Origin: a virus
Taxonomy: Duplodnaviria; Heunggongvirae; Uroviricota; Caudoviricetes
Virus record (IMG/VR): IMGVR_UViG_2706794677_000002
DNA: 19,859 nt
Reading direction: 5' to 3' (one strand)
Below, in pieces: positions 1,894 through 19,859 of the stretch. The position numbers and the translations under genes are program-made. The notes below the pieces were generated by a model. It worked only from the letters and a program-made list of their open reading frames with translations, was not told the DNA's origin and searched no databases. Numbering within the stretch: position 1 is the first letter of the stretch; every line of letters starts with the position of its first letter.

Positions 1894-5606
<3,713 letters not shown>

Positions 5607-14292: not shown

Positions 14293-14618
14293 AAACCTTC
14301 CGCTGGAAAGTGAAACCCGGTATGGATGTGGCTTCGGCCCCTTCTGTAAGAAAGGTGCGCTTTGGTGATGGCTATTCCCAGCGAGCGCCTGCCGGGCTGA
14401 ATGCCAACCTGAAAACGTACAGCGTGACGCTTTCTGTCCCCCGTGAGGAGGCCATGGTACTGGAGTCGTTTCTGGAAGAGCACGGGGGCTGGAAAGCCTT
14501 TCTGTGGACGCCGCCTTATGAGTGGCGGCAGATAAAGGTGACCTGCGCAAAATGGTCGTCGCGGGTCAGTATGCTGCGTGTTGAGTTCAGCGCAGAGTTT
14601 GAACAGGTGGTGAACTGA
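14289..14618 (+). CDS. M: tail tip protein gpM
   Basis: 109 aa (MKTFRWKVKPGMDVASAPSVRKVRFGDGYSQRAPAGLNANLKTYSV...); start overlaps the H stop. Confidence 0.95.
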   Translation: MKTFRWKVKPGMDVASAPSVRKVRFGDGYSQRAPAGLNANLKTYSVTLSVPREEAMVLESFLEEHGGWKAFLWTPPYEWRQIKVTCAKWSSRVSMLRVEFSAEFEQVVN

Positions 14619-15316
14619 TGCAGGATATCCGGCAGGAAACACTGAATGAATGCACCCGTGCGGAGCAGTCGGCCAGCGTGGTGCTCTGGGAAATCGATCT
14701 GACAGAGGTCGGTGGAGAACGTTATTTTTTCTGTAATGAGCAGAACGAAAAAGGTGAGCCGGTCACCTGGCAGGGGCGACAGTATCAGCCGTATCCCATT
14801 CAGGGGAGTGGTTTTGAACTGAATGGCAAAGGCACCAGTACGCGCCCCACGCTGATGGTTTCTAACCTGTACGGTATGGTCACCGGGATGGCGGAAGATC
14901 TACAGAGTCTGGTCGGCGGAACGGTGGTCCGGCGTAAGGTTTACGCCCGTTTTCTGGATGCGGTGAACTTCGTCAACGGAAACAGTGACGCCGATCCGGA
15001 GCAGGAGGTGATCAGCCGCTGGCGCATTGAGCAGTGCAGCGAACTGAGCGCGGTGAGTGCCTCTTTTGTACTGTCCACGCCGACGGAAACAGATGGCGCT
15101 GTTTTTCCGGGACGTATCATGCTGGCCAACACCTGCACCTGGACCTATCGCGGCGATGAGTGCGGTTATCACGGTCCGGCGGTCGCGGATGAATATGACC
15201 AGCCAACGTCCGANNNNNNNNNNNNNNNNNNNNNNNNNNNNNNNNNNNNNNNNNNNNNNNNNNNNNNNNNNNNNNNNNNNNNNNNNNNNNNNNNNNNNNN
15301 NNNNNNNNNNNNNNNN
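14618..15316 (+). CDS. L: tail tip protein gpL; the 3' end lies inside the N-masked gap, so the end coordinate is estimated from the 232-aa length of lambda L
   Basis: The first 198 aa are visible (MQDIRQETLNECTRAEQSASVVLWEIDLTEVGGERYFFCNEQNEKGEPVTWQGRQYQPY...CTWTYRGDECGYHGP...) and match lambda L; the Cys cluster of the C-terminal domain is partly masked. Confidence 0.85.
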
Positions 15317-15463
15317 NNNNNNNNNNNNNNNNNNNNNNNNNNNNNNNNNNNNNNNNNNNNNNNNNNNNNNNNNNNNNNNNNNNNNNNNNNNNNNNNNNNN
15401 NNNNNNNNNNNNNNNNNNNNNNNNNNNNNNNNNNNNNNNNNNNNNNNNNNNNNNNNNNNNNNN
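15214..15463. other. masked or unknown sequence (run of N) covering the L 3' end, the L-K intergenic region and possibly the K 5' end
   Basis: 250 consecutive N. Confidence 1.
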
Positions 15464-15481
15464 CCGGAGGCGTATTTCCGT

Positions 15482-16081
15482 ATGTCGCCGGAAGACTGGC
15501 TGCAGGCAGAGATGCAGGGTGAGATTGTGGCACTGGTCCACAGCCACCCCGGTGGTCTGCCCTGGCTGAGTGAGGCCGACCGGCGGCTGCAGGTGCAGAG
15601 TGATTTGCCGTGGTGGCTGGTCTGCCGGGGGGCGATTCACAAGTTCCGCTGTGTGCCACATCTTACCGGGCGGCGCTTTGAGCACGGGGTGACGGACTGT
15701 TACACGCTGTTCCGGGATGCTTACCATCTGGCGGGGATTGAGATGCCGGATTTTCATCGTGAGGATGACTGGTGGCGTCACGGTCAGAATCTCTATCTGG
15801 ATAATCTGGAGGCCACAGGGCTGTATCAGGTGCCGTTGTCAGCGGCGCAGCCGGGCGATGTGCTGCTGTGCTGTTTTGGTTCATCGGTGCCGAATCATGC
15901 CGCCATTTACTGTGGTGACGGCGAGCTGCTGCACCATATTCCTGAACAACTGAGCAAACGAGAGAGGTATACCGACAAATGGCAGCGACGCACACACTCC
16001 CTCTGGCGTCACCGGGCATGGCACGCATCTGCCTTTACGGGGATTTGCAACGATTTGGCCGCCGCATCGACCTTCGTGTGA
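15482..16081 (+). CDS. K: tail tip assembly protein gpK (JAMM/MPN-like plus NlpC/P60-like domains); the N-terminus may extend upstream into the masked gap
   Basis: 199 aa from the ATG at 15482 (MSPEDWLQAEMQGEIVALVHSHPGGLPWLSEADRRL...), matching the lambda K length; contains the HSHx7SxxD metalloprotease-like motif. The frame stays open upstream to the gap edge. Confidence 0.88.
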   Translation: MSPEDWLQAEMQGEIVALVHSHPGGLPWLSEADRRLQVQSDLPWWLVCRGAIHKFRCVPHLTGRRFEHGVTDCYTLFRDAYHLAGIEMPDFHREDDWWRHGQNLYLDNLEATGLYQVPLSAAQPGDVLLCCFGSSVPNHAAIYCGDGELLHHIPEQLSKRERYTDKWQRRTHSLWRHRAWHASAFTGICNDLAAASTFV

Positions 16082-16650: not shown

Positions 16651-16710
16651 TGCAAAATGTTTTATGTGAAATCGCCTCCGGGCGGTTTTATCGTTTATGG
16701 AGCATGACGA

Positions 16711-19700
16711 ATGGGTAAAGGCAGCAGTAAGGGGCATACCCCGCGCGAAGCGAAGGACAACCTGAAGTCCACGCAGCTGCTGAGTGTGATCGATGCCATC
16801 AGTGAAGGGCCGGTTGAAGGTCCGGTGGATGGATTAAAAAGCGTGCTGCTGAACAGTACGCCGGTGCTGGACAATGAGGGGAATACCAACATCTCCGGCG
16901 TCACGGTGGTGTTCCGGGCAGGTGAGCAGGAGCAGTCACCGCCGGAGGGGTTTGAATCCTCCGGCTCCGAGACGGTGCTGGGTACGGAAGTGAAATATGA
17001 CACGCCGATCACCCGGACCATCACGTCGGCAAACATTGACCGACTGCGTTTTACCTTCGGTGTACAGGCACTGGTGGAAACCACCTCAAAGGGAGACAGG
17101 AATCCGTCTGAAGTTCGCCTGCTGGTTCAGATACAGCGTAACGGTGGCTGGGTGACGGAAAAAGACATCACCATTAAGGGCAAAACCACCTCGCAGTATC
17201 TGGCCTCGGTGGTGGTGGATAACCTGCCGCCGCGCCCGTTTAATATCCGGATGCGCAGAATGACGCCGGACAGCACCACAGACCAGCTGCAGAACAAAAC
17301 GCTCTGGTCGTCATACACCGAAATCATCGATGTGAAACAGTGCTACCCGAACACGGCACTGGTCGGCGTACAGGTGGATTCGGAGCAGTTCGGCAGCCAG
17401 CAGGTGAGCCGTAATTATCATCTTCGCGGGCGCATTCTGCAGGTGCCGTCGAACTATAATCCGCAGACGCGGCAATACAGCGGTATCTGGGACGGAACGT
17501 TAAAACCGGCATACAGCAACAACATGGCCTGGTGTCTGTGGGATATGCTGACCCATCCGCGCTATGGCATGGGGAAACGTCTTGGTGCGGCAGATGTGGA
17601 TAAATGGGCGCTGTATGTCATCGGCCAGTACTGTGACCAGTCGGTGCCGGACGGCTTTGGCAGCACGGAGCCGCGCATCACCTGTAATGCCTGGCTGACC
17701 ACACAGCGCAAGGCGTGGGATGTGCTCAGTGATTTCTGCTCGGCGATGCGCTGTATGCCGGTATGGAACGGGCAGACGCTGACGTTCGTGCAGGACCGAC
17801 AGTCGGATAAGGTGTGGGCCTATAACCGCAGTAATGTGGTGATGCCGGATGATGGCGCGCCGTTCCGCTACAGTTTCAGCGCCCTGAAAGACCGCCATAA
17901 TGCCGTTGAGGTGAACTGGATTGACCCGGATAACGGCTGGGAGACGGCGACAGAGCTTGTGGAGGATACGCAGGCCATTGTCCGTTACGGTCGTAACGTC
18001 ACGAAGATGGATGCCTTTGGCTGTACCAGCCGGGGGCAGGCACACCGCGCCGGGCTGTGGCTGATTAAAACGGAACTGCTGGAGACGCAGACCGTGGATT
18101 TCAGCGTGGGTGCTGAAGGGCTTCGTCATGTACCGGGCGATGTCATTGAAATCTGCGATGATGACTATGCCGGTATCCGCACCGGCGGGCGCGTGCTGGC
18201 GGTGAACAGCCAGACCCGGACGCTGACGCTCGACCGTGAAATCACGCTGCCATCCTCCGGCACCACGCTGATAAGCCTGGTTGACGGGCAGGGGAATCCG
18301 GTCAGCGTGGAGGTCCAGTCCGTCACCGACGGCGTGAAGGTAAAAGTGAGCCGTGTTCCTGACGGTGTTGCTGAATACAGCGTGTGGGGGCTGAAGCTGC
18401 CGACGCTGCACCAGCGATTGTTCCGCTGCGNNNNNNNNNNNNNNNNNNNNNNNNNNNNNNNNNNNNNNNNNNNNNNNNNNNNNNNNNNNNNNNNNNNNNN
18501 NNNNNNNNNNNNNNNNNNNNNNNNNNNNNNNNNNNNNNNNNNNNNNNNNNNNNNNNNNNNNNNNNNNNNNNNNNNNNNNNNNNNNNNNNNNNNNNNNNNN
18601 NNNNNNNNNNNNNNNNNNNNNNNNNNNNNNNNNNNNNNNNNNNNNNNNNNNNNNNNNNNNNNNNNNNNNNGCTGACAGTCCGGGCAGTAAATGCGTGGGG
18701 GCAGCAGGGCGATCCGGCGTCGGTATCGTTCCGGATTGCCGCACCGGCAGCGCTGTCGCGGATTGAGCTGACGCCGGGCTATTTTCAGATAACCGCCACG
18801 CCGCATCTTGCGGTTTATGATCCGACGGTACAGTTTGAGTTCTGGTTCTCGGAAAAGCGGATTGCGGATATCAGGCAGGTTGAAACCACAGCACGCTATC
18901 TTGGCACGGCGCTGTACTGGATAGCCGCCAGTATCAATATCAAACCGGGCCATGATTATTACTTTTATATCCGCAGTGTGAACACCGTTGGCAAATCGGC
19001 ATTCGTGGAGGCTGTTGGTCAGCCGAGTGATGATGCATCCGGTTATCTGGATTTTTTCAAAGGCGAGATAGGGAAAACCCATCTGGCTCAGGAGCTGTGG
19101 ACGCAGATTGATAACGGTCAGCTTGCGCCTGACCTGGCTGAAATCAGGACGTCCATTACGGATGTCAGCAATGAAATCACGCAGACCGTCAATAAGAAAC
19201 TGGAAGACCAGAGTGCGGCAATTCAGCAGATACAGAAGGTTCAGGTTGATACAAATAATAACCTGAACAGCATGTGGGCTGTGAAGCTGCAGCAGATGCA
19301 GGACGGACGCCTTTATATCGCGGGTATTGGTGCCGGTATTGAGAACACCCCTGACGGCATGCAGAGTCAGGTGCTGCTGGCGGCGGACAGGATTGCGATG
19401 GTTAATCCTGCGAATGGCAACACAAAACCGATGTTTGTTGGTCAGGGCGATCAGATATTCATGAACGACGTGTTCCTGAAACGCCTGACGGCCCCCACCA
19501 TTACCAGCGGTGGAAATCCATCGGCATTTTCCCTGACTCCGGACGGAAAGCTGACCGCTAAAAATGCGGATATCAGTGGCAGTGTGAATGCGAACGCCGG
19601 GACGCTCAACAATGTCACGGTAAATGAAAACTGTACGATTAAGGGCATGCTGGAGGCGACTCAGGTCAGAGGTGACTTCGTTAAAGCTGTATCCAAATCA

Positions 19701-19859
19701 TTTCCGAAACAGGCTGGTACGTGGGGTAACACGGAAACACCAAACGGGACGGTTACAGTCACCATAAGCGATGATCATAACTTTGACCGCCAGATTATTA
19801 TTCCGCCCATTATTTTTAACGGTATAGCGTATGACGATCCGGGGAGCGGAAATAACCCA
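16711..19859 (+). CDS. J: tail tip / host-specificity protein gpJ (central tail fiber), interrupted by an N-masked gap and truncated at the window end
   Basis: ATG at 16711 ([37 protein letters not shown]...); ~573 aa are visible before the gap. After the gap the J sequence ([25 protein letters not shown]...[21 protein letters not shown]...) continues in a shifted frame to the window edge with no stop. Lambda J is 1132 aa. Confidence 0.93.
18431..18670. other. masked or unknown sequence (run of N) inside gene J
   Basis: 240 consecutive N. Confidence 1.

Follow-up and report, generated by a model that had tools for sequence, protein, structure and literature searches.

The J gene in the stretch of viral DNA analysed here (hereafter the window; 19,859 nt, Caudoviricetes) probably derives from a lambda-like J that gained two separate distal modules by homologous recombination, and its phage 434-type tip is predicted to use OmpC; we place the probability of this reading at about 0.8. 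In an otherwise lambda-like late operon, the two distal modules of J would have been acquired separately through homologous recombination among lambdoid prophages. The first would be a phage 21-type alpha-helical shaft with its upper fibre, 28 residues longer than that of lambda, which by analogy with lambda would keep the FNIII domains closed and refold once the receptor is bound. The second would be a phage 434-type C-terminal Ig-like receptor-binding domain (RBD), for whose trimeric tip docking on the porin OmpC, and not on LamB, is predicted; this docking would then trigger tail opening as in lambda.

The window (19.9 kb) was a lambda-type late operon, and megablast against a phage collection gave a lambda match of 96.2% identity over 93% of its length. 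The gene order of the late region was collinear with lambda, and the features under the matches included terminase, portal, tape measure and J; slightly better matches than lambda were obtained with the temperate coliphages Chlobot, Kati and several PhiR phages. J was located on the plus strand at the end of the lambda-type tail operon, the position of the gpJ family. Its residues 1–573 (16711–18430), covering the hub domains and FNIII-A, were lambda-like, with 96.9% protein identity to lambda J 1–573, and Pfam assigned them to the gpJ family through FNIII-A_GpJ (E 4e-42) and Phage-tail_3 (E 4e-43). In the part of J that follows an internal gap, Pfam detected Ig_J_second (residues 29–129 of the post-gap translation), Phage_Tail_Tip (183–311) and a partial Ig_GpJ_C (340–385), in gpJ order. 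The PDB matches were the lambda gpJ tail-tip structures 8IYK and 8XCG and gpJ713 constructs, with E 4e-164 for the lambda gpJ chains.

Three runs of N were present in the window (3152–3431, 15214–15463 and 18431–18670), the third of them inside J. This third run consisted of 240 N versus 346 nt in five to six near-identical IMG/VR contigs; the contigs giving 346 nt (L028, L029, L095, L115 and L128) had 0–15 mismatches in the flanks and J in frame. The length and frame of the run are therefore false, so that the post-gap J frame begins at 18672 (lambda J residue 690), and the apparent stop at 18673–18675 in the list of open reading frames is an artefact of a run that does not preserve the frame. 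The run hides J residues ~574–689 (116 codons). Judged by close relatives, the full J would have 1165 aa, and the window stops at residue 1085. The initial annotation had estimated that the last ~80–90 codons lay outside the window, and exactly 80 were found in every close relative. An intact J reading frame of 1165 aa is predicted to end in ...TVIVTKKAASGISIR. Elsewhere in the window, the N run at 15214–15463 probably also accounts for a 487-aa open reading frame (14618–16081) that has the appearance of an L-K fusion.

We cut the post-gap J into four segments at the visible breaks in its alignment to lambda J (NC_001416) and compared each with lambda, 434 and 21. Segment A (18672–19019, plus strand; J residues 690–805, the end of FNIII-1 and FNIII-2, matched by Pfam Ig_J and Ig_J_second) showed protein identities of 96.6% to lambda, 98.3% to 434 and 98.3% to 21. 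Segment B (19020–19457, plus strand), which corresponds to the alpha-helical shaft and upper beta-prism, was 41.8% identical to lambda, 42.5% to 434 and 97.3% to 21, and was longer than lambda by a net 28 residues. Segment C (19458–19619, plus strand), which Pfam Phage_Tail_Tip covers and which is the conserved lower beta-prism (central straight fibre), was 94.4% identical to lambda, 90.7% to 434 and 85.2% to 21. Segment D (19620–19859, plus strand), the first half of the RBD, cut at residue 1085 and matched in part by Pfam Ig_GpJ_C, was 43.8% identical to lambda, 92.5% to 434, 43.8% to 21 and 91.2% to the J of lambda h434 imm21. At the nucleotide level, identity to lambda in 60-nt windows fell from 100% at 18942–19001 to 10–15% at 19092–19181 (10% at 19122–19181), returned to 97–98% at 19452–19601 and then dropped to 40% at 19692–19751. 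Such a contrast between high and low identity along J is far beyond chance. The results agreed with the initial annotation, which had J tracking lambda, departing, returning and departing again: all four peptide strings it quoted were present in the translation of 18672–19859, and in the alignment against lambda J and its homologs the distal region was clearly less lambda-like than the rest of the gene. Its start of divergence at 19000 fell in the right region; the actual start was slightly inside, at ~19020, between VEAVG and QP.

The tip was of the 434 type. The 80 RBD residues inside the window had the high identity to 434 J given above for segment D, and the 80 residues past the window, read from IMG/VR contigs identical over 18672–19859, were 96% identical to 434. 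The whole 160-residue RBD was 94% identical to 434 versus 38% to lambda, with indels at the hot-spot loops. The lambda-type LamB-binding RBD (lambda J ~980–1132) did not match, falling to 33.8% identity beyond the window. At least six IMG/VR contigs were identical over all 1188 post-gap nucleotides, had 0–3 mismatches upstream and carried an intact 1165-aa J. The last 40 nt of the window were found in at least 123 loci, all of which continued as 434-type, and the full 80 residues were undisrupted in 121 of the 123. The last 80 residues in this particular phage are thus presumably also 434-type.

To relate this tip to host range, we compared the J genes of lambda, 434 and lambda h434 imm21 site by site at the 374 positions that distinguish lambda from 434. 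Lambda h434 imm21, a laboratory hybrid, has the h434 host-range allele (PMC9119081), and OmpC is the receptor of phage 434 and of lambda carrying the 434 tail fibre gene (PMC3509688, PMC11101478). Through J nt 2115, all 80 informative sites of the hybrid were those of lambda, and from nt 2133 on 293 of 294 were those of 434. Since 270 of the 374 differences fall at or after nt 2850 (from residue 950 on), the h434 host range maps to the RBD shared with the window. In phage phi458, which has 79 of the 80 RBD residues inside the window in common with it, the C-terminal 159 residues of J were 95% identical to lambda h434 imm21 (tblastn). Given the 434-type RBD in the window and the use of OmpC by 434, OmpC rather than LamB is the best prediction for the receptor, by homology to the 434 host-range allele. 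This supports the earlier proposal of a receptor other than LamB, for which the second divergent block alone is relevant; likewise, its description of the divergent distal J as the receptor-binding, host-range region holds for segment D, which is an RBD and not that of lambda, and fails for segment B, which is shaft and upper fibre.

Our search found no published receptor assignment for a phage with exactly this RBD allele, and searches on phi458, cdtI, mEp332, the PhiR phages and Ayreon yielded none, nor did the texts searched name a receptor for ev099 or WGPS6; the words 'receptor' and 'OmpC' were absent from the text of the phi458 paper. Three candidates were set aside. Phage phi330, an OmpC-dependent long-tailed EHEC phage (PMC12502783), was rejected as direct evidence, its RBD being reported as only 35–40% identical to that of 434. 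The engineered OmpC-targeting gpJ chimera A8 was not of the same tip type, being 81% identical to the phage 21 RBD, and neither was the engineered gpJ chimera 1A2, whose end reads 21-like; the DNA strings of the window that were looked for in the supplement of PMC11338833 were absent from it. As a separate observation, the OmpC-targeting tip in PDB 9wca/9wcb (A8 gpJ 713) shows this same 81% identity to the phage 21 RBD, and tips of the 21 type may therefore be directed at OmpC as well. In that case, OmpC would be the target of two or more J tip families of E. coli prophages that look unrelated.

The RBD of the window was not identical to that of 434, and the differences bear on how exactly the specificity of 434 can be carried over. 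Six of the 80 in-window residues differed, including a three-residue patch that reads KSFPKQAG versus KAFPKKVG (S/Q/A versus A/K/V) at 19695–19715, J residues about 1031–1037. The KAFPKKVG form was that of 434 and most relatives, and the S/Q/A patch, missing from the 434 RBD, was also found in phi458 and in about 12 of 119 IMG/VR loci among the matches listed. The DNA around it was 83–87% identical to 434, MB56 and WGPS6 and 100% identical to phi458, and the patch looks like the result of a micro-exchange within the tip. In the alignment it adjoins the lambda S1012 host-range hot spot, and residue 1012 of lambda is one of two that are critical in the LamB-to-OmpF switch (PMC6646904); a shifted preference among OmpC alleles is therefore possible. 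On this basis, the RBD could have the 434 fold but a shifted specificity, directed at only some OmpC alleles, which are highly polymorphic, or at another general porin, e.g. OmpF. The minority status of the patch, its position near residue 1012 and the finding that the gpJ chimeras A8 and 1A2 accept different OmpC alleles (PMC11338833) speak for such a shift, but we consider it unlikely given the 94% identity to 434 over the 160-residue RBD, compared with ~38–44% between RBDs of known different receptors. Equally doubtful is a combined effect, in which KSFPKQAG would retune the 434-type tip to other OmpC alleles while the longer shaft would alter the transmission from receptor to tail opening; if this were true, shafts and tips of different types could not be combined at will.

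E. coli SCPM-O-B-8794 (L009) has the terminal 40-mer of the window, but another allele. In the IMG/VR locus L019, the RBD frame at the 3' end of J runs into an internal J segment (…GNQGAGKGVSFLLRLTVTADDGSERLV), owing either to recombination of one J copy with another or to a chimeric assembly.

We also considered that J belongs to a defective prophage and is non-functional, in which case a receptor prediction would be moot for this element. The 116 codons under N and the missing 3' end leave room for this, and E. coli genomes contain several J copies (median 2, in up to 13 places), many of them cryptic. However, both visible parts of J are open in frame, the contigs with 0–3 mismatches to the window have the intact 1165-aa J, the 19.9-kb late region matches lambda collinearly with 96% identity, and phi458, whose J is 99% identical in the post-gap part, forms plaques (PMC9701743). 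A defective J is thus distinctly improbable.

Retention of LamB as the receptor, with the differences from lambda J being neutral for receptor choice, is very unlikely. The window and lambda J do belong to the same fold family (Pfam Ig_GpJ_C and the PDB lambda gpJ matches), and LamB can be common to unrelated phages. Against this, just 38% of the 160 RBD residues match those of lambda, the hot-spot loops contain indels, and the 434 RBD to which it is 94% identical belongs to the phage whose host-range allele transfers OmpC use to lambda (PMC3509688). Lambda J (NC_001416; PDB 8IYK, 8XCG, 8XCJ) has the same domain order, with 97% identity as far as residue 805 and 94% for the lower fibre, and presumably the same tail-opening mechanism; in contrast, its shaft and upper fibre are 42% identical to the window and 28 residues shorter, and its RBD, at 38–44% identity, binds LamB.

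To return to the two acquired modules, their origin was examined in a multiple alignment of the window with lambda, 434, lambda h434 imm21, 21, Lambda_2E9, phi458 and an E. coli MB56 prophage. The alignment revealed four pairings: a short shaft with the lambda RBD in lambda, a short shaft with the 434 RBD in 434, a long shaft with the 21 RBD in 21, and a long shaft with the 434 RBD in the window, phi458 and MB56. The long, 21-type shaft thus occurred with a 21-type RBD in phage 21 and Lambda_2E9 and with a 434-type RBD in the other three. Phage 434 J (OL657226) and the h434 allele (lambda h434 imm21, OM418627) have the RBD type, trunk and lower fibre in common with the window, whereas 434 has a short lambda-type shaft and upper fibre, its segment B being without the 28-residue insertion. 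Conversely, the J proteins of phage 21 (OL657228) and Lambda_2E9 (LR595860) were 97–99% identical in segment B (98.6% for Lambda_2E9), with the same 28 extra residues and the same length, but they carry a third kind of RBD, with 44% identity to that of the window. The J of phi458 (OP434518) has the same long shaft and 434-type RBD, with 393 of 396 post-gap residues identical and only point differences. The same module pairing was found in cdtI, ev099, Ayreon and the long-tailed Stx phage WGPS6, at 93–98% DNA identity and again with point differences only. Among at least 101 typable IMG/VR loci with this RBD (counted among the matches listed and fetched by the last 40 nt of the window, hence all with a 434-type tip), the shaft was long in 70 and of the short lambda type in 31.

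These pairings show that the shaft and RBD modules assort independently and that the two divergent blocks of J are swapped modules rather than products of drift. Segment C was conserved in all aligned phages and lay nearer to lambda and 434 than to 21, so that the switch between 21-like and 434-like DNA lies near 19480. The distal J had been described as a mosaic and a recombination hotspot, which fits its two modules of different donor type, and exchange of the specificity region has been published (PMC6646904). Accelerated point mutation under diversifying selection in one lineage, without recombination, is hardly credible as the source of the blocks: diversifying selection is known on the J specificity region (PMC6646904), but each block is 92–100% nucleotide-identical to a different named phage with flanks common to all, the block boundaries are sharp and fall at domain junctions, and the same RBD occurs with both shaft types.

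We then placed the exchanged modules on the domains of lambda gpJ, whose shaft comprises residues 809–861 (domain names follow PMC11101478). According to published work on lambda gpJ, LamB binding causes the shaft to refold, the FNIII domains are released and the tail opens. Segment B lay between two conserved motifs used as anchors, YLDFFKG at lambda aa 816 and IFMNDVF at lambda aa 923, and corresponded to lambda residues 806 to about 922, i.e. the shaft and upper prism, while segment D started at lambda residue 978, ~20 residues before the Pfam Ig domain. Mapped in this way, both exchange points are at or adjoining domain boundaries. The 28 additional residues of segment B sat within the shaft, in which hydrophobic residues were spaced 3–4 apart and the sole Gly/Pro break was at NGQLAP. 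With this pattern, the longer shaft may form a longer trimeric alpha-helical bundle. A single-sequence AlphaFold2 model of the 396-residue post-gap fragment had helices in the shaft, but its mean pLDDT of 35 and pTM of 0.21 made it unusable, and it was dropped as support for the shaft. Because the same module occurs with different RBDs, segment B, as a shaft and fibre module outside the RBD, is uninformative on the receptor. Another junction at the start of the shaft was seen in the IMG/VR locus L124, where a 434-type tip with a lambda-type shaft is fused to non-lambda-trunk sequence (…QLIPASDVRREFAIWAKAVVQVLETLPDILERD…), which suggests that the FNIII-2/shaft boundary is used with other tail types too.

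To assess how common these modules are, we counted them in the complete E. coli genomes (n = 5426). Of these, 2106 had the first half of the 434-type RBD (19620–19859), 3609 the long shaft module (19060–19440) and 2647 the lambda-type shaft. The lambda-type RBD was found in just 98, all at ≥99% identity, and laboratory strains such as J53 were among the listed rows. The 434-type tip is therefore about twenty times commoner than that of lambda in complete E. coli genomes, and lambda is an atypical reference; divergence from lambda is the norm and no peculiarity of this phage. Maddamsetti et al. (PMC6646904) described J residues 960–1132 as an independently recombining specificity module and reported nested indels upstream of it, which they left unexplained and which may correspond to the shaft-length polymorphism seen here. 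A mosaic J with a 434-type tip is thus nothing new, but a very common and already described arrangement, and the majority state, in E. coli prophages. Its use lies mainly in annotation, in that the J of this prophage can be labelled confidently as carrying a host-range domain of the 434 type, for which OmpC is the receptor predicted; in addition, the natural pairings of shaft and tip show engineers the junctions that tolerate swaps, namely the FNIII-2/shaft and lower-prism/RBD boundaries.

Upstream of J, between the stop of I (16650) and the start of J (16711), we observed a GC-rich hairpin followed by a T run at 16671–16690 (GCCTCCGGGCGGTTTT). At this site, the GenBank entries for phages 434 and 21 have an annotated terminator ahead of J.
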